From: an uncultured Verrucomicrobiae bacterium | Lineage (GTDB): Bacteria > Verrucomicrobiota > Verrucomicrobiia > Chthoniobacterales > Terrimicrobiaceae | Direction: 5' to 3' | DNA length: 64,000 nt | Assembly: GCA_963706955.1 (NCBI GenBank) | Contig: CAVPOC010000008.1 | Location: 544,001 to 608,000, forward strand | Shown: positions 46,473 through 60,377 of the stretch, in pieces | Layout: each line of letters begins with the position of its first letter | Numbering within the stretch: position 1 is the first letter of the stretch | The notes under the pieces: model-generated | Told to the model about the DNA's origin: nothing | The model's database searches: none | What the model saw: the letters and a program-made list of their open reading frames with translations, nothing else | Program-made: the position numbers and the translations under genes

Positions 46473-47619
46473 CTACTTGGTCGAGAAACGATAAACCGTC
46501 GTTTGTGTGTACTTCTCACCCGGCTGTAACTCGGTTGTGGGAAAGTCCGGCTGGTTTGGTGAATCTGGAAAGTGCTGCGTCTCTAAACAGAGGCCAGTCC
46601 GGTGTTGGTAAGCGGTGCCGCCCTTGCCTTTGTTTGTCCCGTCGAGAAAGTTGCCGACATAAACCTGCAAACCCGGCTCGGTGGTTAGGAGTTCCATGAA
46701 TCTTCCTGTGGTTGGCTCGTAGAGGGACGCCACCAATTCAAGGTCGTTTCCGGTTCGGTTCAGCACCCAGTTGTGATCGTAACCACTACCAAATTTCATC
46801 TGTTCATCGTCGCTTTCGACCCGGGCTCCAATGGCTGTGGGCTTGTTGAAATCGAACGGCGTGCCCGCAACCGGCCTGAGCTCCCCCGTCGGAATCAGAC
46901 CCTTGTCAACCGGAGTGAACTTATCAGACTTAATCATCAGCTCGTGCCCCAGGATATCGCTCGCTCCGGCATCTTTTAGGTTAAAATAGGAATGGTGCGT
47001 CAAATTGACGAAAGTGGGCTTATCGGTTTCAGCGGTGTACTGGATCTTCAACTCATTGTTGTCCGTAAGGGTGTAAATCACCTCGCAGCGAAGAGTGCCT
47101 GGATAGTTTTCCTCCCCATCTTTGCTCGTGTACGTCAGCTTGAGGGCCGGTCCTTCGGGAGTGTCCAACTTTTCAGCCTGCCAGACGACTTTATCGAATC
47201 CTTTGCGACCGCCATGCAGGGCGTTCTCAGCGTTGTTCTGCGCAAGTTGGTAGTCGACACCGCTGATCTTGAATCTGCCCTTTGCGATTCGATTGCCATA
47301 GCGGCCGATCAAGGCACCGAAATAGGCGAGTGTTGCCGATATAGTCGTTTAGCGTGTCATATCCAAGCACCACATCGCCAAGTTTGCCATTTTTATCAGG
47401 CACCGAAAGTGAAACGACGATTCCACCGTAGTTGGTGATTGTCGCTTCGAGGCCATTCTTGTTCTTTAGCGTGTAGAGCTCGACTTGAGCGCCATCGATC
47501 TTTCGGCGAAATGCTTCCGGATTAACTTGCCCGCTGGAGGTCCTGACGAAACCGCCGAAGAATATCGCCAAAGCCAGCGCGGGGCCAACAACAACCAACC
47601 CACGACGAGGAGTAAACAT
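46473..47619 (-). CDS. galM: Aldose 1-epimerase (frameshift near 47330)
   Basis: ITNYGG, GRYGNRI, LHGG, HSYFNL, GYDHN, CLETQHFPDSPN. Confidence 0.93.
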
Positions 47620-47952
47620 AAAGACACCTTTCGGTGAACAGGGGAATGCCAGAATATCCCGCTAAAATTCCTTGAATTCAACAGCGTTTTTCAAGGTAAC
47701 CTCCCTATCTCACCTGCAAGCCTTCTGCCCTCCGGGAAATCCGTAGGTCCACTTCGATTCTCACTAAAATACTTCCCGGCAAACCTTCATAGTTCGGACG
47801 CACATGAATTGCGGTTGCAGTTGGAGCGCCAGAGGCGAGTATCGTCGGAAAAGTTGCCCAAGTCCGGTGCGCAGCCGTCTGCCCACAATTGCGCGTTGGT
47901 TCTCGATGAGCCGATGCTTGAGAGCATGGCAACTACGGCGCATGGCCTGCCC

Positions 47953-48975
47953 TCACGGAAGCGTCCAGGGTTTGAAGTAGTCGAGAAGAATGAGCGACGA
48001 GCCACCAGAGGAGCGTCGAGACGACTCAAGGACGGCGGGAAAGTCTGTCATTGGTCCAAAGACAAACCCGCGCGAGAGAGGACGAAAGAAATCGTCCTGA
48101 TGACTGGGAAGAACATATCGAGGTCGCAACTGTTCCAAAATTTCGGCAAATCGCTTTCGGGAGTCTGGGAGCGCCACTCCGAGGATCGCCAGATCGATTC
48201 GCCCGAGCGATGGCGGTAAGGCGCCGTTGGGTCTGCCGCCGGCTGCGATGTAGATTCGCCGCCCACCGATCTCGATTAAGAAAGCGAGCGGCTCTCCGCA
48301 GACCCAATCTCCGGCTGCCCGCGGCGGCAGACGGCGAGGTGGTCCATCGAAGGGAACACGGCCAAAAAGGCGGTCATGCTTTGCTGGGAGGACGCTTACG
48401 GTGGCTCCACGGAGAGAGACCTTCTCTCCAGCAGTAACGACCATGCACTTTTCCGATGGAACGCCCGCCGACCGCGCCAGTTGAATGCTGGTGGAAGAAG
48501 CGATCAGCCTCGCACCTGTGAGAGCGACGACCTCAGGGACATCGAGCAGATGATCGAAATGGCCGTGGGTCACCATGACGGCGTCGATTCTGCGCACCGG
48601 CAAGTATCGCTCGATTAGCTGGCGACTCGAGGAGACCGGAAGATTCATCGCGGCGCGAAAAAGCCTAATGCGCGAAAAGTAGGGGTCGATCAGCAGCGCC
48701 GCGTCGCGCGATTGTAGCAGATAAGCATTGGTTCCCAAATAGGCGATGCGCACTCCTGTTTTCGGTGGCGCAAACGACACATCTTGATCCGCGACGATCA
48801 AGTCGCGATAGCGCTGCAAGCCGGCGTGAAGCTCCTCCCTTGTCATCCAGAGGCCTAGAACGACCAGAATCCCGATCAGCCTCACAGATCGGCGAATTGC
48901 CGATTTCGCTGCTCTGACAACACATTCGAGACTGGCGCCGTCCCTTCTCTCTAGCTGGTTCTTCGATTTGCTCAT
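47953..48975 (-). CDS. MBL-fold metallo-hydrolase
   Basis: LIDPYFSR, THGHFDH, PSHQDDF; start uncertain. Confidence 0.85.
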   Translation of the reverse strand: MSKSKNQLERRDGASLECVVRAAKSAIRRSVRLIGILVVLGLWMTREELHAGLQRYRDLIVADQDVSFAPPKTGVRIAYLGTNAYLLQSRDAALLIDPYFSRIRLFRAAMNLPVSSSRQLIERYLPVRRIDAVMVTHGHFDHLLDVPEVVALTGARLIASSTSIQLARSAGVPSEKCMVVTAGEKVSLRGATVSVLPAKHDRLFGRVPFDGPPRRLPPRAAGDWVCGEPLAFLIEIGGRRIYIAAGGRPNGALPPSLGRIDLAILGVALPDSRKRFAEILEQLRPRYVLPSHQDDFFRPLSRGFVFGPMTDFPAVLESSRRSSGGSSLILLDYFKPWTLP

Positions 48976-49700
48976 ACAAGCGCGCGAAAAGCTCCGTAGA
49001 AGCGGAAAGGGTCGGTGTAAAGATGTTCCAAGCTTCGGAAGCCCCCTTCGAAAGCTATCCGTTCGAAGGTCCTTAGATTCTCGGGAAAGTCATACTGTGA
49101 AACATGCTCCCAAATGATTTTCCTTTCCTCGGAAGTGAACGCTTGCCAGTCGTGTTCAAGGGAAGCCTTCCAGCGATCAAGAAATTCTTCGCGCGTCTCC
49201 TGGCCATCGAGCATCGGTTCGAAGAAAATCCATTCGCCGCCTGCGCTAAGTGCGCGGCAAATTTGCGGTGCGAAGGCAACTTTGGCTTTGCTATCCAAGT
49301 GATGAAACGAGAAGCCAACAAAAATGATGTCCCACCGGCGGGAGGCTGCGTTAACATACTCCTGAAAGTCCTGGTGTATTACCTGCGTCGCGCACCCGAG
49401 TGAATGAGCGTTATCGAAAGCGACGGAGAGGGCGGGCTCCGAGAGGTCGACCGCGATGTATTCGCTGACGTTCGTTCCACGAAGAGCGGCAACGGAACAA
49501 CCCGCGTCCCCACAGGCGAGATCGAGCAACGAAAACGGCGCGCTTCGCGCCTTGAGCAGGTCGTGTAAAATTCCAAAGAGCGCGCGATGCGACATATAGT
49601 CCGCCTCAACGACGCGGCGATACATCGCCTGCTGCGCCACAAAAATCGCGAGTCCGCCATCGCTTCGAGATTCGGGGGTCAGACCCATCCCGACAGTCAA
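48972..49700 (-). CDS. Class I SAM-dependent methyltransferase
   Basis: LLDLACGDA, VDLS, FSFHHL. Confidence 0.85.
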   Translation of the reverse strand: MTVGMGLTPESRSDGGLAIFVAQQAMYRRVVEADYMSHRALFGILHDLLKARSAPFSLLDLACGDAGCSVAALRGTNVSEYIAVDLSEPALSVAFDNAHSLGCATQVIHQDFQEYVNAASRRWDIIFVGFSFHHLDSKAKVAFAPQICRALSAGGEWIFFEPMLDGQETREEFLDRWKASLEHDWQAFTSEERKIIWEHVSQYDFPENLRTFERIAFEGGFRSLEHLYTDPFRFYGAFRALV

Positions 49701-49780: not shown

Positions 49781-49862
49781 TGCCCGGAGAGGGACTCGAA
49801 CCCACAAGGATTGCTCCACCAGATCCTAAGTCTGGCGCGTCTGCCAATTCCGCCACCCGGGC
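49781..49862 (-). tRNA. tRNA-Leu(TAG)
   Basis: Cloverleaf with long variable arm, anticodon TAG. Confidence 0.96.
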
Positions 49863-49993: not shown

Positions 49994-50365
49994 CTATAAA
50001 ACGGCAGAATGCTTTAACGGGCGCTTCCTGTGGTATTTCCGACGCAGGTTGACTTCACAGATGATGAGCGGCTTTCGGTTTTTTTCGAGAATGTCCTGAA
50101 TGCCTTCTACGCAAGCCTCTACCACTTGCGACTGGCTGCGGTTCAGCTCGTCGGCCAACTCAGTCACCTTCTGCTTGCACTGCGACGTTACATTGACGAT
50201 GTGCGAACCGTTGCCTTCGTGCTCTGCAGGCGCGATAAACTCGCTGATCGCGTGACGAACGATATCCGACAGTCTCTCGCCCTTGCCGCGAGCAACCGCG
50301 ATCTCAAGCAATCGCTCGCGCTGCCCATCTTCTAGACGAACACGTAGCTGGTTGCTCTTAGGCAT
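49994..50365 (-). CDS. Putative tandem ribbon-helix-helix DNA-binding protein
   Basis: Two RHH-like patterns: LRVRL...LSDIVRHAISEFI and IVNV...RSQSQVVEACV. Confidence 0.6.
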   Translation of the reverse strand: MPKSNQLRVRLEDGQRERLLEIAVARGKGERLSDIVRHAISEFIAPAEHEGNGSHIVNVTSQCKQKVTELADELNRSQSQVVEACVEGIQDILEKNRKPLIICEVNLRRKYHRKRPLKHSAVL

Positions 50366-50422
50366 CTAAGTGTGATAAGGTAAAACTAAACAATTGCAAC
50401 ATTTTGTAAGCATCACCTCGGT

Positions 50423-51946
50423 TTAGGCAGCTGCTAAGGAAAAGCGAACCGCATGGTTGATGTCGTCGGTGAATTCAGCACTGCCCTCGTTGACATCCGG
50501 TTCGTAGAAGAGAACCGCATTCTCCGCGGTTCGTCCCTTCCCCAGGCGTAACCTTAGCGCTTTGACGTTCTTCGCCTGGGCTTGAACCGCACAGTCTCTA
50601 ATGGCCTGACCATCTGCATCGGAGATCTGAACACGAGGTAACGCAGCGGTTCCGGGGGAGATTTCGTTATCGACGAGAACCGGCACTGGCAGCGAGTCGA
50701 GAACTGCCTTCAGGTCCAAAGTACTCGGGGCGCCTTGACTTTCCTCATGCTTAGATCCGCGAGGCCCCCAGAAGACCGCGATTTTGCCATCGGCAAGCTT
50801 GGTCGCGAGGCAGGAAATCGTCGCCTGCGACTCGAAATCGATCCATGATTTCTCGACAAAGCTTCCTTTCAAAGCAAAGGCGATGACCTCCCGCGCGTAG
50901 CTATTGTGAATCGCCCTGAAATAATCTCCGTCTCGGGGTTCACTGCCTAAGAGCGCAGTCGCACCCGCTACGCTCAGAATTCGACCCTCTTGACTTATCG
51001 TGAGAATGCCGAATTTCAGCGCAGCAAAGGCTTCAAATAGATTCTTGGTTTGATGGTTTTGAGAGTCCCGTTCGAAGGCTGCCGCCACGTTTGTCGTCAG
51101 CAAATATCCGGCAACCTGGAGATCATCGAGCAGATCATCGGTGCAACGAGCGGCGTCGACTCCGAACGCCAGCCATCCGAGCAGCCGCGCCTCCTTCACC
51201 ATGGGGAGCAGCAGATTGCAATTGCGGTTGGCCAGATAGTTGAAAAGCGGAAGGGAGGCTCGATTTTCAAGTTCCTCCGTGGTGAGCGGATGGGCGCGCT
51301 TCTTGATCAAGCGGATAACCTCCTGAGAAGGTGCGCATTCTCGCCCACGAGATTTTCGCTCGGCGTAGGTTTCCGGCTCGACGTAGATGCGCCGGAAGGC
51401 ATTCTTCTCGACGTTCCGCAAAAATACTTCCACTCGGTCGGCCCGCAAGTCCCAACACAACTGCCGTGCCGCAGCGATGAGGACGGCCTGCGGCGTCTGG
51501 ACGTCGCCGGCCGCACGCGCGAGGGTGTGATCAAGAGGACTCGATATTCTGCGGGTTTGACGCCTCGGCTCGTGCCTTCGTGAAGGTGGAAAATTGTCTG
51601 TTGGGTGCGAGACGAGGTGCTGGCGGACGGCGTTGAGGACTTGATCCGGGGAGGAGGAAAGCCGGCCGGCATAACCGTTCAACTCGATCTTCGATTCTCC
51701 TAAGCCATCGACGACAAAGGTGGGAACGTCTTCGAGACGGACCTGAACTTGGTGCGCCTTCTCGAGCGTTTCATCGTCGATGACAACGCAAAGGGCTACG
51801 TCCGGCTGACGGAAGAGGGGGGCCCGCAATTCGTCGTATGAGCGAAGTTGGACCTCTGCAATTGATTCCAGGGCTTCTGCCACGTTAAGGGCGGAGCGGA
51901 GGCCATTGTGATCGTAAGCAACTATAATGGAGTGAGCGTGATTCAT
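50423..51946 (-). CDS. Hypothetical sensor-like protein (degenerate receiver-, GAF- and PAS-like segments)
   Basis: 507 aa; LLLPMVKEARLLGWLAFG is GAF-like, GILTISQEGRI..ATALLG is PAS-like; start overlaps the upstream stop. Confidence 0.55.
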   Translation of the reverse strand: MNHAHSIIVAYDHNGLRSALNVAEALESIAEVQLRSYDELRAPLFRQPDVALCVVIDDETLEKAHQVQVRLEDVPTFVVDGLGESKIELNGYAGRLSSSPDQVLNAVRQHLVSHPTDNFPPSRRHEPRRQTRRISSPLDHTLARAAGDVQTPQAVLIAAARQLCWDLRADRVEVFLRNVEKNAFRRIYVEPETYAERKSRGRECAPSQEVIRLIKKRAHPLTTEELENRASLPLFNYLANRNCNLLLPMVKEARLLGWLAFGVDAARCTDDLLDDLQVAGYLLTTNVAAAFERDSQNHQTKNLFEAFAALKFGILTISQEGRILSVAGATALLGSEPRDGDYFRAIHNSYAREVIAFALKGSFVEKSWIDFESQATISCLATKLADGKIAVFWGPRGSKHEESQGAPSTLDLKAVLDSLPVPVLVDNEISPGTAALPRVQISDADGQAIRDCAVQAQAKNVKALRLRLGKGRTAENAVLFYEPDVNEGSAEFTDDINHAVRFSLAAA

Positions 51947-53247
51947 ACTAAGACATTACTGAGGTTGGGATTGTATATCATTAACTTGAAGTTCCGGTTA
52001 TCCTTAGGGAAAGTCGCCAGCTTTGCCTGTGGCGCTCTCAAGAGCAAAGTGACATTGGCCCCCCCGATACCATGCGCATTCAGCAAAGCTGTTTCGGGAA
52101 ATGAATACCTGGCAGTTTCGCGAACGAAGTCGAGGGCTTCGGGGATGGGCACATCCAGATTAGCGGTGGGCGGCACAACTCCATCGCGAAAGGAAAAGAT
52201 CGCCGCAGCAACCTGCAATGGTCCGGCCGCAGCCAAAGGATTTCCAATGGCTCCTTTGATCGAATAAACGGGAACGTGGGCCGCCTGGCGACCGAGCGTT
52301 TCCACAAGGATTTGCGCCTCGATGCGGTCAATGACCGGATGCCCCGGACCCCACGCCGAGATCGAATCGATCGTGGCTGGGCTCCATCCAGCATTGTCTA
52401 AAGCTTTCTGGATTGAAGTGGACCATCCACTCCCGGGCACGTCCTTCTCCGTATCGAGGTGGGAACCATACCCGGCGATCTCCGCGAGAATGGAAGCCCC
52501 CCTCCTCAGGGCGGACTGCTTCTCCTCGATCAGGAAGAGACCGGCGCCTTCGGCGCATACCCCGCTGTCGGCAAAAACGTCGAATGGCCGACTGGCCTTC
52601 TCAGGGCAGGAATTCCGGATCGATGAGAATCCGCTTCTGACGAATTCGGCGAGTGGGGTCAAACCGATAGCGCAATCAGCTCCCCCGGCGATCGCCTGAT
52701 CGGTTGCACCTGTGGCGATATCGCGAGCAGCTAGCCCAATGGCTTCCAAACCGGCGGCGCAGGCCGTGGAAACGGTTAATACATCGCCCGAACTTTCCAG
52801 GTATCGCGCGATTGCCCCCGCAGCGGCATGAGGTGGACTTTGCGAAGCCGCGTACGGAGAGGCCGCCGATCCCCCTTTCTGGCTGCGTGCAATGCCTGAT
52901 TCGCTAATCATTGAGGTGCAACTCGTCGCCACCCCGAGTCTAATCGAAGGCCGCTGCCCCAACTGTTTAACCTCATCTTTGATCTGGCGCGCTGCCCACA
53001 GTAAGAGTTGTGTGTGCCGCGCGACACGCTTGGGCCTAAGTTCTGCCGGAAACAGAGAAAGGTCGAAGGGTGGCACCTCCCCCCCAAAGGAGCATCCCGA
53101 TTCCGAGGTATCCAGGCGTCTGATTTTGCCGATTACCGTCCGCCCTGTCCTAATGATCTCCCAAAACGATTCTGGCTCAAGGGCGCCTGGCGCTGCCAAT
53201 CCCATGGCGGTGATGACGGCAACACGTGGGCGAGTTATGCCATGCAT
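51943..53247 (-). CDS. Beta-ketoacyl synthase (FabF-like) with non-canonical active site
   Basis: VITAMG, STACAAG, SRPFD, EGAG, PPTAN, GIGGAN. Confidence 0.88.
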   Translation of the reverse strand: MHGITRPRVAVITAMGLAAPGALEPESFWEIIRTGRTVIGKIRRLDTSESGCSFGGEVPPFDLSLFPAELRPKRVARHTQLLLWAARQIKDEVKQLGQRPSIRLGVATSCTSMISESGIARSQKGGSAASPYAASQSPPHAAAGAIARYLESSGDVLTVSTACAAGLEAIGLAARDIATGATDQAIAGGADCAIGLTPLAEFVRSGFSSIRNSCPEKASRPFDVFADSGVCAEGAGLFLIEEKQSALRRGASILAEIAGYGSHLDTEKDVPGSGWSTSIQKALDNAGWSPATIDSISAWGPGHPVIDRIEAQILVETLGRQAAHVPVYSIKGAIGNPLAAAGPLQVAAAIFSFRDGVVPPTANLDVPIPEALDFVRETARYSFPETALLNAHGIGGANVTLLLRAPQAKLATFPKDNRNFKLMIYNPNLSNVLV

Positions 53248-54752
53248 AGTTCTGTCTCCAACAGTTTCTCCGTGCCGAGTCTCGGCTCGTTTTGCCAGAG
53301 CGGTTCATAGCGGGAAGGCGCCATGCACTCGCTCGGATCGAAGGTCCGCTGTATTCCAGAAAGAATCCGCGGCCACGGCCGCTCCATTCGCGGAATCTGA
53401 TCGCCCTGGGCCAGGCCAAGACGATACGGGATCAATCCACTCCGCAGGTAAGTCTCGAGCAAGTCGTCAGCCGCTTGCCGAGCGATCCTAGTTGCTCGGG
53501 CGCAACGACGGTCAAACCCGAGCGAGACGATGAAGGCAGCCTGGCGCGCAGTTACCGCGTTGATGGAAAGCGGAATTGTCTCATAGCCATATCGCCGGAG
53601 CGTTGTCATCGTTTGCCTTTCGATAGCGCTGACCATCTCCCCACAAAGCGGTAACATCGGCGTAACGTGGATGAGACCGGCGCCACTCGCCTCCAAAGAC
53701 ACCCCCGTCGGAGCGGCGCGTCCAAAGACACTGAAAGATACGCTCGCCAGCGTCAGATCTGAAGGGTGACCAAACACCAAATTACTTAGCTTCACCCTTT
53801 CTTGATTGCTTAGAACCTCGACCGACCCCAGCGACGCCAAAGAAGAGGTTAGGTATTCCGCCGAAGCGGCAAACACCGCTGTCGATCCACGTATCGGAAT
53901 AAGCGCCGTCCACGGCGCGGCGCTCGAGCGAAGCTCAGCTGCTTGAGTATCCGTCAGGTGCGGGCACAGCGTCGTAACAATCCGCTCTCGATTGAAAATA
54001 TGAGGCACGCCAGAACAGGCTCCCTCCGCCATCAAATCGGAAATGGTTGAAATTAGATCGGCGAGTTGATCGCCGCTGCTCAGCCGGCAGAGCACTCCTC
54101 CCATCATTGTCGGACGTCGGTGAAGCGCGATGGTCGCCGCAGTGACCACGCCGAAGTTGCTTTGACAGAAGAGCGCCGTCGGGTCCGGACCCAATCCACT
54201 AAGACCCGCTCTGGTGCGCGACAACATCCCGAATCGGGACGTGTGGGCGAGCTCGCCAGTCGGCAAGACAACCTCCAAGTCCAACAAATCAAGGTGGCGC
54301 TGGCCGGAGTAGCCAATCCCCCGCTCTAAGGCGTTACCCAGAACACTCGCCCCAAGCCCGGCCCCTGTGACATTGAAATAGTGACTGCCCCCTTCGTGCT
54401 CGAGGGCATCGTCTAGCTGGCCCTGTGTAACGCCGGGTTCAATCTCCGCACAATGCATCTTCAAATTGAAAGCCCGGATCCTTCGAAGCGCCGACAAGTT
54501 CAAAGTGTAGACATCGTCTGTCGTCGCGAGATCGGAACCGAAGCCCCAATTTCGACCGCATGAAAGTGGTTGCAATTTGACGGCGCCTCTGGCCCGTGAG
54601 GCCGCTGCGACAATACGCTGCACATCGGCCACACACTGCGGAGTCAGCACGCCGGCACTATGGCGGCGATGTCCACATAAAGACTCCGCCATCGCCCCCG
54701 GAGCTAACCAGCGACTCACTTCATCTGCAAAAACCTTCTTCGAACTACGCAT
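53235..54752 (-). CDS. FAD-binding oxidoreductase, VAO/PCMH (p-cresol methylhydroxylase flavoprotein-like)
   Basis: SCGRNWGFGS, IEPGVTQGQL, GNALERGIGY, GPDP..LFCQSNFGVVT, PYRL, FDP..MAPSRY. Confidence 0.85.
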   Translation of the reverse strand: MRSSKKVFADEVSRWLAPGAMAESLCGHRRHSAGVLTPQCVADVQRIVAAASRARGAVKLQPLSCGRNWGFGSDLATTDDVYTLNLSALRRIRAFNLKMHCAEIEPGVTQGQLDDALEHEGGSHYFNVTGAGLGASVLGNALERGIGYSGQRHLDLLDLEVVLPTGELAHTSRFGMLSRTRAGLSGLGPDPTALFCQSNFGVVTAATIALHRRPTMMGGVLCRLSSGDQLADLISTISDLMAEGACSGVPHIFNRERIVTTLCPHLTDTQAAELRSSAAPWTALIPIRGSTAVFAASAEYLTSSLASLGSVEVLSNQERVKLSNLVFGHPSDLTLASVSFSVFGRAAPTGVSLEASGAGLIHVTPMLPLCGEMVSAIERQTMTTLRRYGYETIPLSINAVTARQAAFIVSLGFDRRCARATRIARQAADDLLETYLRSGLIPYRLGLAQGDQIPRMERPWPRILSGIQRTFDPSECMAPSRYEPLWQNEPRLGTEKLLETELCMA

Positions 54753-55006
54753 ATCTCTTTAGGTAATCTCTTCACTCGTTTTCGCCCGCGTCGGGAAGGC
54801 AGCCTTCGACAGTTGCGAATCACACCGACAAGACCGTTCACCGCGGGGGGCTAAGACGAGTCAATCTGATTAGAATTTCGCCCTTCTAAGGCTCAGTTTG
54901 CAGGTGCGTCACCGCTAATTTTCTGTAGCGTGCCTTGTCGTTTTGTTTCCTTTGATGCACAAATAGGGCACATTTGTATCACAAACATGTTATCTGCAAT
55001 ACACCT

Positions 55007-55627
55007 ATGACAAGTGAGTTACACGGAGAGAGTCTCGGACGCTGGGCTCGGCGTTGTGGAATTACATATCGGACCGCGTGGCGTTGGTTTCGCGACGACA
55101 AATTGCCGGAAGACGTGATTGCCGAGCGGATGCCCACCGGAACGATCCTGATCCGTGACGGCCGAACTCTAAGGAGTGTGGAGCAAGATAAGACCGCGGT
55201 AATTTATGCACGGATTAATGCTCGCCAGGAACCCTCGGTGTTGGCGGAGCAGATCGCTATGTGTCAGGACTTCTGTGTGGCGCGAGGATGGACGATCACC
55301 CGGGTGATTCGGGAGATTGCCCCCGGAGTTGGACTTCAACGAACAAAGTTGACGCGGCTCATTGAGCAGCGGGCGCCAAGAGTCGTCGTGGCGAAACCAA
55401 GTGTCTTGAGCCGCTTTGACTATCGGCTCTGTGAGGCTCTCTGGCAGAACCTTGCCTCAGAGCTTGTGATTGTGAACCAAGCCGAGGAGATCGGTGGGGA
55501 GGGTGGCGCGCTCGAAGATTTGACCGACGCAATAAACATTATTTGTCATCGTCACTATGGACCGAAACGCGGCGGCGCGCTGGTCGAGCTGCTCAGCCGA
55601 GTCATTCACGGAACGCTCTCTGTTTAA
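55007..55627 (+). CDS. IS607-family TnpA-like protein (wHTH plus serine-recombinase domain), catalytic Ser absent
   Basis: WARRCGITYRTAWRWF...PTGTILI, YARIN, EIAPG, LSRF, HYG. Confidence 0.85.
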   Translation: MTSELHGESLGRWARRCGITYRTAWRWFRDDKLPEDVIAERMPTGTILIRDGRTLRSVEQDKTAVIYARINARQEPSVLAEQIAMCQDFCVARGWTITRVIREIAPGVGLQRTKLTRLIEQRAPRVVVAKPSVLSRFDYRLCEALWQNLASELVIVNQAEEIGGEGGALEDLTDAINIICHRHYGPKRGGALVELLSRVIHGTLSV

Positions 55628-55644
55628 TTCTTGCGTCGGCGGTC

Positions 55645-56808
55645 TCAAACAAGCCGCGCAAAAGCAGCAATCAACTCGTGGCGGGTCTTAAATCCCAACT
55701 TCTTATAAATGGAACTCAATTGGTTCCGCACGGTGATTTCGCTTTTCCCCAGTCTCTGGGCAATATCCCGATTGTGCAGACCTTGGGCGGCAAGCAGCGC
55801 GCAATCCCGTTCGCGTCGGGTCAACTGATTGAGCTTATCGGCAAGATTTGTCTCTTTCTTGGAAAGACGTTCTTCGTTGAGCGTCAGCAAAAAAGTTCCC
55901 TTCGATAACGATAGCGATCGTGAGGGCAAGAACTCGATGGAAGCGCTCAAGGCGGCATTCGTAGGATGTCGATAGCGAAACTGTATAGATCTGCGGCCGC
56001 CGGGAGTATGGCTCCATTTTTGCCGCATGATGTTCGGGCGCATTCGTTCGAGTTCGGCTAAGATGTCGCCGGGGACTTGAAGTCTTCGAGGAGCTTTGAA
56101 GATCGACGGGCTGCTCCCGTTCTTCCATTGAAAGCAAAGTTGGCTGGCAATGGCGTTGTTGTGCAAGACCTTTAGATTCCAATCGAGGATGATTGTCGCG
56201 GAAGGAAGCGAAGAGACAAAGTAGCGCAGAGACGATTGAAAGAGGCGGCTCTCTTGATGCCCGGCCATTCTGCGAATCACGCAAGCAAAGTGAGGCTGGA
56301 GGGCCTGCAGTTCCTGCATTTGCTCGTCCGTAAAGTTTCCCTGTTCTTTACTGCGCATCACTGTAAGTGTCGCCAGCCAAGTGGTGTCGCGCCAGGCGAC
56401 CACCGAAGCGCCAAACTCGCATTCACTCGGCAGGAGGAGCTTCTTATAGAAGATCGACCGGTGGAGCATGTTTTGCGGCGTGAAATCGGAGTGTCGCACC
56501 ACGGTGACTTGGGGGTTTACTGGACTTCGCCGCAACCAAATATCGTGCTTGTGGGTTTCGGCCATGTACTCGTCCACGAGCGGCTTCCACTTCAAAGGAA
56601 AAAAACGACACGGGAGTTCAAACTCCAACGGACGAAACAGCAAGATCAAAAAACGGTTAGGAATGCAGACGTCGACAAGCTCGAACGTTGCTTTGGCAAG
56701 CTTCGCACCATCATCGACTTCGTGGAGTCGAACTAAAAGCTCCTCCGCCGCACGATTGGTATGAAACGGAAGAAACGACACCTTTTGGTTCGTTTGCACC
56801 ATAGCCAT
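55645..56808 (-). CDS. LuxR-family HTH regulator with large N-terminal sensor region
   Basis: LTRRERDCALLAAQGLHNRDIAQRLGKSEITVRNQLSSIYKKLG; start uncertain. Confidence 0.9.
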   Translation of the reverse strand: MAMVQTNQKVSFLPFHTNRAAEELLVRLHEVDDGAKLAKATFELVDVCIPNRFLILLFRPLEFELPCRFFPLKWKPLVDEYMAETHKHDIWLRRSPVNPQVTVVRHSDFTPQNMLHRSIFYKKLLLPSECEFGASVVAWRDTTWLATLTVMRSKEQGNFTDEQMQELQALQPHFACVIRRMAGHQESRLFQSSLRYFVSSLPSATIILDWNLKVLHNNAIASQLCFQWKNGSSPSIFKAPRRLQVPGDILAELERMRPNIMRQKWSHTPGGRRSIQFRYRHPTNAALSASIEFLPSRSLSLSKGTFLLTLNEERLSKKETNLADKLNQLTRRERDCALLAAQGLHNRDIAQRLGKSEITVRNQLSSIYKKLGFKTRHELIAAFARLV

Positions 56809-57128
56809 CGTTCAATCTTCCTTTAGCATTCAACCTTAGCAGCGACAAGTGTTACATCTTGAGCCATGAGGGTGGCACCGAAGTGCCGGCGCCGCCAAGG
56901 GGTTGGCTTGCCGCCTTGCCAGCTGGAGAATTCGACGCCGCTCGACTAAGAGGAAAGCTCGAACCGGGGGAGACTCGGGCAAAGGAAGTGTGCAGCATTT
57001 GGTTCAAATGCACTATAGTCGGTGTCGCGGCGGTTGTTCTACTGTCATCGAAAAGGAACTCAACGATCGAATCGTGCCGCCTCGGAGACAAGAAAGATGT
57101 GGAAGCTTTTGGTTCATTTGCACCATAG
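56783..57128. promoter_or_regulatory. Three copies of a 22-bp imperfect palindrome WTTTGGTTCRWWTGCACYATAG
   Basis: 56783-56804, 56997-57018, 57107-57128. Confidence 0.75.
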
Positions 57129-57290
57129 CAGAATCGCCAGACTTCTCCATACTGGGACTTGAAATTCTTCTCGTCGTAGCCCGCGAAAGACCAGGAAGAG
57201 CGGGTGGAGAATTTAAGTAGCCCGATCGGAGTAGAGGCCGATGCGGATAGCGTTTCGGGATTGGGACCCAACAAGAAAGGACACGCCCCC

Positions 57291-57602
57291 ATGTGGAAAG
57301 TCGTAGTAACAGAGATTCAGGACGCAAGCGCCCTGGAGCCCTTCGATGTGCCGGCTGGGGCTTTTTTTGTCAGCAAGGAACGACTTGCGCGGACCGTGGA
57401 GAATCTCGATCTGCCGGGGTTGATCGACGCCCTCGAGGCCATGCAATACGCGAGGGAAGCCCGGCCCGTTTCGAGCGAAGGAACTCCGCCGAGACGGAAT
57501 TCGTTGCGGGCGAACGCGGGCTCTGAAATCCACCGCGTGAACCGACTGCGGTCGCAACCGATAGCAGTGGCAACTCAATTTGTTTCGAAAAACGGTCCAT
57601 GA
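57291..57602 (+). CDS. Hypothetical protein
   Basis: AAGAAAGG RBS-like sequence; ATGA overlap with the LytTR gene. Confidence 0.5.
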   Translation: MWKVVVTEIQDASALEPFDVPAGAFFVSKERLARTVENLDLPGLIDALEAMQYAREARPVSSEGTPPRRNSLRANAGSEIHRVNRLRSQPIAVATQFVSKNGP

Positions 57603-58093
57603 TATTCAACCATCTCCAGAAGCGGCTTCCCGGGCCGCCATCTACCATTCACCTCCAAGGGCTTACCAACGGCACCCATCGTCAACCTTCCTCGGCTTCG
57701 GATGACGAGCTGCAAAGCCTCGAGGGCGAAGAGATTGCTCAGCGCAACGGTGGGATCTTTCAAGATAACGACTTCGTTTTCGTCAGTGACAACGTGAACT
57801 GCTGGGTGGTGCGGGCTGCGGATATCTCGGTGCTCGAAGCGTGCGGAAACTACACGCGCGTCTACTTCAACGACTCCTCGGCCTTGATTCGCCGTCCCCT
57901 CCGGGAGTGTGAGTGTCGGTTGGATCCCTCCACGTTTTTTCGGACCCGGCGCGATTGTGTGGTCAATCTCAGCCGCGTGAAGCAAATGCGGATGCTCGAC
58001 GCCAAGCGCTTCCTTTTTGTTCTGCTGGACGGCAAGGAGGTGCCAATGTCGCGAAAGCAGAGCCTCATTTTCCGAAAGACAAAGGCCCTCTAA
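57599..58093 (+). CDS. Stand-alone LytTR DNA-binding domain protein
   Basis: LEACGNYTRV, LDPSTFFRTRRDCVVNL, VPMSR; no receiver domain. Confidence 0.85.
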   Translation: MIFNHLQKRLPGPPSTIHLQGLTNGTHRQPSSASDDELQSLEGEEIAQRNGGIFQDNDFVFVSDNVNCWVVRAADISVLEACGNYTRVYFNDSSALIRRPLRECECRLDPSTFFRTRRDCVVNLSRVKQMRMLDAKRFLFVLLDGKEVPMSRKQSLIFRKTKAL

Positions 58094-58216: not shown

Positions 58217-58816
58217 TCAACACCAGCCGCCCCACGCACGGAGCTGGTTAAGGGCTCGCCCGCGATGGCTGAGGCGGTTCTTGGTCGCGACGGGAAGCTC
58301 GCCGAACGTCTGTGAAAAACCATCTGGCATAAAGAGTGGATCATACCCGAATCCCTCCACGCCGCGCACGCATGAGGCGATTAGTCCCTCGACGATACCG
58401 CTGAACGCCGCCAGTTTACGGCCGGCGCGCGCAAGAACGATGACGCAGCGGAATCGTGCTCGTCGCTCCTGTTCAGGAACCTTCTTCAGGTTTTTCAGGA
58501 GCAAGGTGTTATTTTCAGAATCGCTGGCAGCGTCTCCAGCGTATCGGGCGGAGTAGATCCCGGGAGCGCCTCCCAAGGCGTCGACCTCCAGACCGGAATC
58601 GTCAGCGATGACCCATCCCTCGAAAAGCTGTGACGCAGCTACAGCTTTGAGCTCGGCATTTTCCTCGAAGCTGGTTCCAGTCTCCTCCACTTCATGCATG
58701 GTCGGCAGGATAGACAAGTCCGACACCTCGAACGGGTCTCCGAGGATGGTCCGAATCTCGCGGAGCTTGTGCGGGTTTCGCGTGGAGACAAGCAAGGGAA
58801 TTGGCGATGTGCACAT
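58217..58816 (-). CDS. rdgB: Non-canonical purine NTP pyrophosphatase
   Basis: TRNPHKLRE, EETG.SFEENA, ADDSGL, GFGYDP, SHRG. Confidence 0.95.
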   Translation of the reverse strand: MCTSPIPLLVSTRNPHKLREIRTILGDPFEVSDLSILPTMHEVEETGTSFEENAELKAVAASQLFEGWVIADDSGLEVDALGGAPGIYSARYAGDAASDSENNTLLLKNLKKVPEQERRARFRCVIVLARAGRKLAAFSGIVEGLIASCVRGVEGFGYDPLFMPDGFSQTFGELPVATKNRLSHRGRALNQLRAWGGWC

Positions 58817-58899
58817 CTTCCCTCTGTTGCGCTGGAAATGAGTCGCCGGCAAGAAATTGATTTCGCTTGGCCCGCATTGCTTCCAAAGTAGGCTTGAAC

Positions 58900-59439
58900 A
58901 TGGATCGGCTCTTCAAACGCGCACGACAACTGGCAAGACCGATGTTGGCGTGGTTGCGGGCTTGGCCTTGGTTCGTGGCCAGCATCGTTCTTGGATTTTG
59001 GATCGAGGAGAACTTTCCATTTTCGCATTGGCCGATGTATTCAAATTTCTCGAGAGAGTCGGGTTACGTGTATGTGATCAATGCCGCCGGGGAACCGATC
59101 GCCGCGGCGACACTGTTGGAAACTGCGCCGAGGCTCCGACGCCAGTTTGAGCGAGAGCGGCGGACGGAGCTCAATCGTGTGAAAACTGGCCAGGCGGTCA
59201 AAACGCCCGCCGAGATCGAGCGCGATGCCGCAATGCATCTCTTGAAACGGCTCGCACAGCGATTGTCTCCCGATGAGCGAAAGTCCGCAAACGGGCTGGG
59301 ACTGGTCAGCGCACGGCTGAGAATGGACGACAATCGCAAGATCACCGTAACGGAGCAGACCGTGGCGACAATTGAGTTTGAAGGCATACCTTACACCCCG
59401 ACCTCCGCCGGCGACGACCTCCTCAAGGAAGCCCTCTAA
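58900..59439 (+). CDS. Membrane-anchored hypothetical protein
   Basis: One TM helix then ENFPFSHWPMYS motif. Confidence 0.6.
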   Translation: MDRLFKRARQLARPMLAWLRAWPWFVASIVLGFWIEENFPFSHWPMYSNFSRESGYVYVINAAGEPIAAATLLETAPRLRRQFERERRTELNRVKTGQAVKTPAEIERDAAMHLLKRLAQRLSPDERKSANGLGLVSARLRMDDNRKITVTEQTVATIEFEGIPYTPTSAGDDLLKEAL

Positions 59440-59450
59440 CCAAGCAGGCT

Positions 59451-60377
59451 ATGGACAAACGTGCTCTCACCGACATCGTTCCTCGGATAGATTTCGCCTG
59501 GTGGGAAACGGCCATCATGCGGGCAGGATTTGCCATCCTCCTCCTGACTCGCTTTCCCTCTCTTGGTTCTCTTCCGGCCCCCGGGGCCGAGCTTCGTTTT
59601 CCAAACGGCTTGGCCAAGTGGATCGATTTGACCTGGGCTCTCGACCCCGGGCCATACTCGTTCATTGTGATCCTTCTGAATGCTGCCGCAGCCCTCTACA
59701 TCACCGGTCTCGCCTTTCCGCTCTCCTCCACGGTGTTGTTCCTCTGCTACTTGGTGACGGGAACATTGCAGAACTCGCTGGGCTCCATCAGCCACTACTA
59801 TCAAGTAATGACACTGATGCTGCTCGGACAGGCGATCGCCGCCTGGCTGTGGGCCGCGCTGGGGCCAGACCGGCTCGAGGCTTGGACACGTTCCCCGGCC
59901 TCCTTGCACTCTTTCACGACCCGGGTGACTCTCCAGGTTCTCGCAGGTAATTACGTTCTCTGCGCTCTTACCAAGCTCATCCAGAGCGACGGCGCCTGGA
60001 TTTGGAATAGCCAGTATATGCCCGTGCAATATGCGAAGATTCAGGCCCAGCACTACTATACGACCTTACAGAATCGAGACCTCGGGTTGGGAGGGACGCT
60101 CAATGACCTCTGCACCCAACATGCCTGGCTGTGCATGCTCGTTTACGCGCCCGGATTGATCGGGGAACTGCTCACCTTTCTGATGCTTTTCGGCCGAGTC
60201 TGGCTGCTGCTCGTCGGCCTTGCGGTCATTGCGATGCACGCACTCGTCGAAATCACCATGAACCTCGCTTTTCCTCAGCACCAGTGGATCTTCCTTATCT
60301 ACGCCGTCAATCTTCCGTTCTGGATCGTCAGAGGAATGCAGAGCCGTCCCGTCGGACTGCGCCGACATCCCGCCTAA
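59451..60377 (+). CDS. Multi-TM membrane protein, possibly HTTM-like
   Basis: SISH, Y...LTKL..G..W and MH...ITMNLAF motifs. Confidence 0.55.
   Translation: MDKRALTDIVPRIDFAWWETAIMRAGFAILLLTRFPSLGSLPAPGAELRFPNGLAKWIDLTWALDPGPYSFIVILLNAAAALYITGLAFPLSSTVLFLCYLVTGTLQNSLGSISHYYQVMTLMLLGQAIAAWLWAALGPDRLEAWTRSPASLHSFTTRVTLQVLAGNYVLCALTKLIQSDGAWIWNSQYMPVQYAKIQAQHYYTTLQNRDLGLGGTLNDLCTQHAWLCMLVYAPGLIGELLTFLMLFGRVWLLLVGLAVIAMHALVEITMNLAFPQHQWIFLIYAVNLPFWIVRGMQSRPVGLRRHPA

Follow-up and report, generated by a model that had tools for sequence, protein, structure and literature searches.

The 64,000-nucleotide stretch analysed here (the window) comes from an uncultured member of the Terrimicrobiaceae (Verrucomicrobiota) and carries, between a tRNA-Leu(tag) gene and rdgB, a cluster of eight intact open reading frames (ORFs; window ORF list). 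Three of them, which encode a VAO/PCMH-type flavoprotein, an atypical FabF-type ketosynthase (KS) and a sensor-like protein, form its core. We tentatively interpret this locus, with confidence a little short of even, as a signalling module for a lipid-like small molecule that was rewired to one-component form. A module that combines a related KS and flavoprotein with three sensor kinases and a FadL/TodX channel was found in other Verrucomicrobiota, in Lentisphaerota and in Kiritimatiellota, and the window cluster is kept under purifying selection. The features of the locus are, in window coordinates:

49781-49862, minus strand: tRNA-Leu(tag) (ARAGORN; Rfam tRNA, 51.4 bits), left boundary of the locus
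49994-50365, minus strand: ribbon-helix-helix (RHH)-like protein, 123 aa (weak NCBIfam ORF56 and PDB 2k9i matches), last gene of the minus-strand unit
50423-51946, minus strand: sensor-like protein, 507 aa (AlphaFold2 model, hhalign)
51943-53247, minus strand: FabF-type KS, 434 aa (Pfam ketoacyl-synt N and C)
53235-54752, minus strand: VAO/PCMH-type flavoprotein, 505 aa (Pfam FAD_binding_4), first gene of the minus-strand unit
54753-54973: spacer between the divergent flavoprotein and TnpA-like genes (alignment of 12 loci)
54974-55627, plus strand: IS607 TnpA-like protein, 217 aa (NCBIfam transpos_IS607)
55645-56808, minus strand: LuxR/GerE-type regulator, 387 aa (Pfam GerE)
56782-56805: 24-nt box 1, containing the imperfect palindrome TGGTnCAnnTGnACCA
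56996-57019: 24-nt box 2, 75% identical to box 1
57106-57129: 24-nt box 3, 96% identical to box 1
57204-57602, plus strand: small ORF, conserved part 57291-57602 (genus alignment)
57599-58093, plus strand: LytTR protein, 164 aa (Pfam LytTR)
58217-58852, minus strand: rdgB (Ham1 family; Pfam, NCBIfam), right boundary of the locus

The gene content and coordinates named in an earlier sequence-only reading of the window were borne out, with Pfam and NCBIfam names in agreement, and all ORFs that it had called intact are full length. Neighbouring genes overlap by 13 nt (flavoprotein/KS) or 4 nt (KS/sensor and small ORF/LytTR). The TnpA-like gene is divergent from the minus-strand unit, luxR is convergent on the TnpA-like gene, and the small ORF and LytTR gene are divergent from luxR.

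Homologues of the flavoprotein (28-34% identity) were present in 23 of the 400 other genomes of a phylum sample, and 20 of these 23 loci were fetched (G088, G135 and G168 were left out). Genes for FadL/TodX, a REC-HisKA-HATPase protein and the flavoprotein stand in a row in 19 of the 20 loci; a KS gene followed by a HisKA_7TM-GAF-PAS kinase gene, divergent from this row, occurs in 15. All five module genes are found in 14 loci, and a third, GAF-PAS kinase gene is likewise found in 14; most incomplete loci are cut off by the edge of the contig or of the locus. Profile scanning of GTDB species genomes gave 80 loci, comprising 13 with module genes, two that were genus loci, and 65 with flavoprotein homologues from many phyla that had no KS or FadL-family neighbours within the stretch available. 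The titles of the 13 module loci name Verrucomicrobiota, Lentisphaerota (including Victivallales) and Kiritimatiellota (including Pontiella). Lentimonas is also named among the titles of the 80 loci; of these two genera, part of the module was observed only in the Pontiella locus (L054). In one module locus (L046), the KS and the seven-transmembrane (7TM) kinase are translationally coupled by 4-nt overlaps. Family f14, which belongs to the order of the window, has a REC-kinase gene next to genes for the KS, the 7TM kinase and the third kinase (six of 11 loci, and L029), with neither flavoprotein nor FadL; the flanks of the f14 module (aldolase, LpxD, a single REC protein and a ParA-like protein) gave no clue to its output. 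Genome G316, in which a flavoprotein, a Trp-type KS (see below) and two kinase-like genes follow one another, is an intermediate form. The genome of the window itself (92.5% complete) contains no FadL-family gene and no orthologue of the 7TM kinase.

The slot between the module KS and FadL holds different enzymes depending on the lineage. These include an O-methyltransferase (Methyltransf_2/Dimerisation by Pfam; L033:4447-5538 and L037:4380-5462, with L039:11913-13013 grouped by BLAST clustering only) and a B12-binding radical SAM enzyme (L030:12612-14081). Five loci of family f52 (L030, L040, L041, L047 and L048) carry, behind the flavoprotein, a PlsY-like acyltransferase and then a fusion of a FeeM-like part, of the N-acyl amino acid synthase type, with a class-V aminotransferase. 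Such variable tailoring genes, to which a fatty-acid desaturase gene in L130 (see below) may be added, resemble those of small biosynthetic clusters, and together with the flavoprotein they would fit a hydrophobic, acyl-derived and perhaps hydroxylated product. The sequence-only reading had proposed a small-molecule signalling circuit assembled from repurposed parts. Its signalling part gains support from the KS clade and related flavoprotein found among three sensor kinases and FadL/TodX; its notion of an assembly from repurposed parts needs to be refined, as flavoprotein, KS and sensor together look more like what is left of an older, larger module than like a new combination.

Both ketoacyl-synt domains are present in the window KS (PF00109, 111.6 bits; PF02801, 71.7 bits), and it shares with FabF/KAS II (Synechocystis 1e5m, E. 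coli 2gfw) the active Cys163 (TACAAG), Lys331 of the SxK motif and the two-domain thiolase fold, with collinearity across residues 6-404. However, the Cys-His-His triad of FabF/KAS II is absent: the alignment to 1e5m places Trp299 at the His site of 'AHGTS' and Asn336 at that of 'GHLLG', which confirms that the catalytic His pair is missing, as had been noted before. Both the genus and a second family, f111, retain this Trp/Asn replacement. The window KS further differs from FabF/KAS II by two extra conserved histidines, His303 and His392 (the latter in an N-x-H-G motif that is family-wide), by scores below the curated fabF cutoffs (TIGR03150, 245.3 against 493.75 bits, about half; PRK07314, 249.7 against 387), by its position in a clade separate from the FabFs of its own genome, and by the lack of ACP (acyl carrier protein) or fab genes nearby.

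Asn occupies the second His site in 22 of 24 relatives outside the genus (the exceptions are L034 with Cys and L043 with Ser); as Asn is thus the norm of the KS family, its presence at this site does not indicate decay. The first His is retained in most of the distant KS relatives, which gives a family norm of Cys-His-Asn. An additional His four residues downstream of the first His site is seen in L036, L037 and L039, and the window branch (Trp) and family f14 (Tyr) retain only this later His, His303 in the window. We infer from these alignments that the catalytic residues of the KS were probably replaced stepwise. A quick tree with 38 rows placed the window KS within the clade of module KS proteins (35 rows), apart from the two FabFs of its own genome (SH-like approximate likelihood ratio test, 96), with a long branch (1.12) leading to the Trp-type group. 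Apart from this clade position, it shares with the module KS proteins the second-site Asn and the pattern N-x-H-G-x-G (GNP and NAHG motifs).

The sensor-like protein is, by profile alignment, a kinase-less homologue of the third gene of the module. It aligned to the third-gene kinases with an hhalign probability of 95.3% (E 2e-8, 356 columns), residues 19-382 being collinear with 17-413, and these kinases extend further into HisKA and HATPase with the conserved His of SHEIRNPL. A Pfam scan of the window protein gave no match and hence neither HisKA nor HATPase_c, in line with the earlier observation that it lacks an output domain. Its AlphaFold2 model (pLDDT 65) comprises a REC-like domain (~1-113), a GAF domain (~150-305), a PAS-like domain (~313-395) and a small C-terminal domain, and its best fold match in the PDB is the dual-sensor histidine kinase 6oap. 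Compared by BLASTP with the proteins at the same position in the f111 loci L130 and L131, it showed marginal similarity in the GAF region (E 0.09 and 5e-4). Complex prediction for KS (1-410) and sensor (1-400) with their own alignments yielded scores of 0.41, 0.00 and 0.01 (mark 0.32), which speak neither for nor against a complex.

Of 18 same-genus genomes, 15 contain a close orthologue of the KS, two others contain fragments, and G007 (59% complete) has none; flavoprotein orthologues were identified in 16 of the 18. The order RHH, sensor, KS, flavoprotein, TnpA-like, LuxR, small ORF, LytTR and rdgB is kept in all 12 genus loci fetched. In a class sample of 401 genomes, 15 matched the KS with E values of at most 1e-75, and 50-52% identity was reached only in G617 and G712 of f111. 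Their two loci (L130 and L131) contain a GAF-like protein, the KS and the flavoprotein, followed by the TnpA-like gene and an orthologue of the LuxR-type regulator adjoining the core, all between different flanks; L130 also has a weak RHH-like ORF and a fatty-acid desaturase gene that overlaps the flavoprotein gene by 4 nt. Ratios of nonsynonymous to synonymous substitution rates (dN/dS), calculated by the Nei-Gojobori method against the closest relative L017 at a dS of about 1, were 0.11 for the RHH-like gene, 0.10 for the sensor, 0.07 for the KS, 0.19 for the flavoprotein, 0.07 for the TnpA-like gene, 0.03 for luxR, 0.09 for LytTR and 0.32 for the small ORF, compared to 0.105 and 0.078 for the flanking rdgB and leuS. 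The sequence-only reading had set co-occurrence in relatives and dN/dS as tests of its proposal. The array proved syntenic in 12 of 12 genus loci, with flavoprotein-KS, TnpA-like gene and luxR together in a second family, and values near 1 were not seen (0.03-0.19 for the seven genes it had named, 0.32 for the small ORF), so that neither test refutes the proposal. In one genus locus (L028, from the 68% complete G010), most locus genes are split into several frames; as this also applies to rdgB and leuS, the splits suggest an error-rich assembly and not decay.

The flavoprotein matched Pfam FAD_binding_4 (PCMH-type, PF01565) with 64.7 bits (cutoff 26.4) and is matched over its full length to 9fge/9ffk and PCMH 1dii. 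With the VAO/PCMH 4-phenol oxidoreductases (9fge/9ffk, 8s7x, eugenol oxidase 5fxd and PCMH 1dii) it has in common FAD_binding_4, a collinear cap domain and the C-terminal Tyr-Arg pair, which is invariant (Tyr443-Arg444). It differs from them by an identity of only ~25-30%, by Phe in place of the first phenolate-site Tyr of the GYG motif (Met or Leu in relatives), and by the coupling of its gene to a ketosynthase and sensors instead of catabolic genes; the residue roles used here follow in part PMC7617285. The crystal structures of VAD and nsVAO from that paper, whose codes are given jointly, include 9FGE and 9FFK, and nsVAO binds flavin adenine dinucleotide (FAD) non-covalently (PMC7617285). 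Length and identity suggest that 9fge/9ffk are nsVAO. As described there for nsVAO, the window flavoprotein has no His for covalent linkage: Leu aligns to the linking His of 8s7s, and neither a His-FAD nor a Tyr-FAD link was found.

The protein encoded opposite this operon scored 92.7 bits against NCBIfam transpos_IS607 (NF033518; cutoff 110); the 217 aa given above include a start that gene callers place at Met12, leaving 206 aa. It resembles IS607 TnpA (ISC1926 6dgc, IS1535 6dgb; PMC6188088) in its N-terminal helix-turn-helix (HTH) and its collinear serine-recombinase catalytic fold. It differs in having Asn82 at the position of the catalytic Ser (YARIN against YARVS in the alignment to the ISC1926 catalytic domain 6dgc), which agrees with the sequence-only reading of a TnpA without its serine, and in lacking a tnpB partner in the window ORF list, although no search aimed at tnpB was made. 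Asn82 is invariant in 13 genus sequences and two f111 sequences. Among 114 database relatives, the site is occupied by Asn in 89, Ser in eight, Pro in one and Asp in one, while 15 are fragments without the motif; all eight relatives with Ser have identities of at most 37%.

One copy of the TnpA-like gene is present in the window's own genome, at a site that is identical in 12 of 12 genus loci. In a class sample of the same size and drawing rule as that for the KS (401 genomes), orthologues (E 1e-54) occurred only in G617 and G712, within 3 kb of the KS, and the serine-less gene co-occurs exclusively with the Trp-type (50-52%) KS. Being single-copy and syntenic across two families, it does not behave as a mobile element. 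Nine genomes of family f22 carry 1-7 ordinary IS607-like genes each, at 23-36% identity (class search); five of them (G471, G477, G489, G495 and G500) have 4-7 IS607-type TnpA matches each, at 23-31% identity, as for active elements, in contrast to the single, fixed and serine-less copy of the window. The protein would thus consist of an HTH and a dead serine-recombinase domain, a candidate domesticated regulator. In the spacer to the flavoprotein gene, the TnpA-proximal ~110 nt are conserved in the genus (12-locus alignment); inverted repeats in this spacer are weak ones only.

The LuxR-type regulator matched Pfam GerE (HTH; PF00196, 49.1 bits) over residues 328-380 only, and Autoind_bind gave no Pfam match at E up to 0.01. 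Its AlphaFold2 model (pLDDT 77) places two GAF/PAS-like domains in front of the HTH, and the fold of this N-terminus matched phytochrome sensor modules and the ligand-binding domains of CviR, RhlR, SdiA and VqsR; for CviR, RhlR and SdiA the match is loose (TM-score 0.44-0.49 per target). The modelled N-terminus therefore seems to fold like ligand-binding sensor domains. A common origin of this N-terminus with the third-gene kinases of the module (hhalign 67%, 107 columns) or with the window sensor (hhalign 0.1%) was considered as well, and both comparisons were too weak to keep it.

Three 24-nt boxes, predicted from their sequence to be operators, were found between luxR and the small ORF; their core is an imperfect 16-bp palindrome by direct reading. 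The three operator-like boxes of the sequence-only reading are thus present, with the qualification that box 1 lies over luxR codons 2-9 and that extra boxes are not general in the genus. Box 1 occurs in all 13 genus loci, at least one extra box only in five of the 13 (the window, L017, L018, L023 and L028), and box 2 itself only in the window and L017. No further copies were detected elsewhere in the 64-kb window at up to five mismatches. The luxR/small-ORF spacer that contains the boxes (56809-57381) is covered by contigs of three soil RNA libraries, as would be expected if the leader were long or a transcript had escaped annotation, with DNA carry-over as another possible source. Of the small ORF, ~65 residues from Met30 (57291) of the ORF beginning at 57204 are conserved, with no Pfam match. 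The LytTR protein matched Pfam LytTR with 58.5 bits over residues 70-157 only, behind a variable N-terminus with no domain match; the LytTR domain therefore stands alone, and the earlier remark that it lacks a receiver is correct. Neither the LytTR gene nor the small ORF was found beside the core in the f111 loci L130 and L131, so both may be genus-level neighbours and not part of the core. The RHH-like protein is conserved in 12 of 12 genus loci and split in L022. The ORF of the proposed tandem RHH gene is hence real; the RHH assignment itself is weak, both of its matches being below threshold (NCBIfam ORF56, 22.2 bits with a cutoff of 50; profile against PDB 2k9i, E 0.38).

Pieces of the locus were matched by contigs of four soil metatranscriptome runs, including the flavoprotein/KS, KS/sensor and sensor/RHH junctions, which we take as weak evidence for expression. 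At least eight studies of soil and rhizosphere yielded metagenomes with near-identical DNA. Between 49700 and 58300, an Rfam scan (E up to 0.1) revealed nothing beyond the tRNA, and a promoter/terminator scan returned consensus sites at or below shuffled expectation.

Based on these data, we propose the following course of events. The flavoprotein and the atypical FabF-type KS would likely make or modify a fatty-acyl-like small molecule, and this molecule would be sensed by the co-translated kinase-less REC-GAF-PAS protein and by the LuxR-type regulator with its GAF/PAS-like domains. In the parent module, the KS, the oxidase and lineage-specific tailoring enzymes would build a hydrophobic signal that crosses the outer membrane via FadL and is read by the 7TM kinase. 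The Terrimicrobiaceae lineage would have lost the phosphorelay and substituted one-component regulators, namely the LuxR-type protein and the HTH protein derived from TnpA that is encoded opposite the operon; the RHH-like and LytTR proteins may belong to them as well. In its widest form, the proposal is an undescribed system of the PVC (Planctomycetes, Verrucomicrobia, Chlamydiae) group, in which a Cys-His-Asn KS, a VAO-type flavoprotein and tailoring enzymes produce a lipid-like autoinducer that reaches a 7TM kinase through FadL, and of which the Terrimicrobiaceae locus is a one-component descendant with a stand-alone sensor, a shifted KS His and an IS607-derived transcription factor. Taken as a whole, this wider claim is possible, and we would not call it likely.

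Several points weigh against a signalling role of the window locus. All functional readings follow from guilt by association, and synteny within the genus is by itself weak evidence for a link since the housekeeping flanks are syntenic too. Decarboxylative condensation by a KS without both canonical histidines is doubtful unless His303 or His392 substitute for them, and neither the ORF list nor Pfam revealed an ACP, acyltransferase, reductase or exporter in the locus. A phenolic substrate of the flavoprotein is uncertain because one phenolate-binding Tyr is replaced family-wide. In a quick flavoprotein tree of 70 rows (genus rows L050 and L051 were dropped by a length filter), the window sequence and that of G316 sat on long branches, which leaves its presumed orthology to the module flavoprotein unsettled, and a family hidden Markov model ranked the window flavoprotein below some non-module homologues. 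The flavoprotein is also not obligatory to the KS, as f14 combines KS and kinases without it. As its genome lacks FadL and the 7TM kinase, the window lineage offers no candidate route for signal uptake or export. The contigs from RNA libraries, finally, may derive from DNA.

An alternative is a locally regulated metabolic operon, in which flavoprotein and KS act on a hydrophobic compound (for example a fatty acid, a membrane lipid or something similar to an alkylphenol), altering it or breaking it down, and the regulators respond to this substrate with no signal passing between cells. Fatty acids and aromatic hydrocarbons enter cells through FadL/TodX channels, and kinases that sense a substrate commonly stand beside uptake and catabolic genes. 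The kinase cores are similar to AtoS (311 bits, which is below the cutoff), the PlsY, desaturase and acyltransferase genes nearby fit lipid metabolism, and the best structural relatives of the flavoprotein are catabolic 4-phenol oxidoreductases (PMC7617285). However, a condensing enzyme is an unusual part of a catabolic pathway; dehydrogenases, thiolases and CoA ligases are absent from the module loci, where the tailoring genes differ between lineages; the genome of the window lacks the FadL family entirely; and KS and 7TM kinase are coupled in L046, as is often the case for signal synthases and their receptors. On balance, we regard a purely metabolic operon as rather unlikely, though still worth serious attention. 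Another reading takes the KS not as a synthase but as a sensor subunit that binds, or is acylated by, acyl-ACP or acyl-CoA and relays the status of lipid synthesis to the GAF-PAS protein or, in the parent module, to the kinases. It draws on the stepwise loss of the His pair under strong constraint on Cys163, Lys331 and the fold (dN/dS 0.07), on the Tyr-for-His KS of f14 within a full kinase module that has no flavoprotein, and on the presence of KS and sensor-kinase lineage in one operon in every form seen. Most module KS proteins, on the other hand, keep Cys-His-Asn, a set that is catalytic in KAS III and chalcone synthases, and the variable tailoring enzymes point to a product. A parallel for the sensor-subunit reading is the synthase CqsA, which is reported to inhibit its receptor kinase CqsS (PMC13729885); interaction of KS and sensor is hypothetical in our case, and we consider a pure sensor function improbable.

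It might also be argued that unrelated genes, independently acquired or decaying, became adjacent by chance beside a tRNA gene: tRNA-Leu directly borders the locus, one of the genes is transposase-like, genus members differ in what lies between galM and the tRNA, and several proteins miss canonical residues. Yet eight full-length ORFs with dN/dS values of 0.03-0.32, a TnpA-like gene that is single-copy, fixed in site and serine-less in two families, a core that recurs in a second family between different flanks, and a GC content equal to that of the flanks are all hard to reconcile with chance. Genus synteny, dN/dS and the orthologues of core and TnpA-like gene in the second family contradict this explanation, which we regard as very improbable.

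Returning to the one-component rewiring of a signalling module, we compared it with known circuits of synthase and receptor. PpyS/PluR and DarB/PauR had been named as analogues in the sequence-only reading, and the proposed logic is indeed alike, in that a condensing enzyme would make the signal for a LuxR-type regulator with a sensor domain other than the acyl-homoserine lactone type. The analogy does not extend to the enzyme: PpyS and DarB are FabH-type KAS III synthases, unlike the FabF-type KS of the window, and there is no indication of pyrone or resorcinol chemistry. CqsA/CqsS and LqsA/LqsS share with the parent module an enzyme gene directly before that of a multi-pass membrane histidine kinase, with kinases or receivers after it. 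They differ in that CqsA and LqsA are not ketosynthases but pyridoxal phosphate-dependent acyl-CoA transferases, and in that the module kinase combines a HisKA_7TM region with GAF and PAS; the window locus has lost the kinases. This gene set was not found in the literature: our search, with subscription journals outside its coverage, returned no paper that describes the module, the FabF-type clade with Cys-His-Asn or relatives of IS607 TnpA without the serine.

Regarding the surroundings of the locus, galM (aldose 1-epimerase, 46473-47703) is split by a frameshift near 47324-47332 in comparison to its intact orthologue in L021 and is either a pseudogene or affected by an assembly indel. Frameshifts had been described as common elsewhere in the window; this was verified in galM only. 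A metallo-beta-lactamase-fold gene and an S-adenosylmethionine methyltransferase gene lie between galM and tRNA-Leu (47953-49700). As this pair is found only in some genus loci (L017, L023 and L028, partly L018), the tRNA-proximal stretch is variable. The interval between rdgB and leuS (58867-60377) contains two conserved ORFs of 190 and 308 aa without Pfam match, which all of the 12 genus loci except L024 retain; the 308-aa ORF reads as hydrophobic.

To our knowledge, neither cell-to-cell nor lipid signalling has been elucidated in Verrucomicrobiota and other PVC bacteria, which abound in soil, water and guts. A conserved module that combines a ketosynthase, three sensor kinases and a channel for hydrophobic compounds represents a concrete and testable signalling candidate. 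Irrespective of the signal, the KS is a case for enzymology, as a FabF-fold enzyme whose catalytic histidines were apparently replaced stepwise, and the serine-less IS607 transposase, fixed at one site and under selection, is a case for evolution. The lineage of the window, finally, would show how a two-component circuit may be rewired into a one-component circuit.

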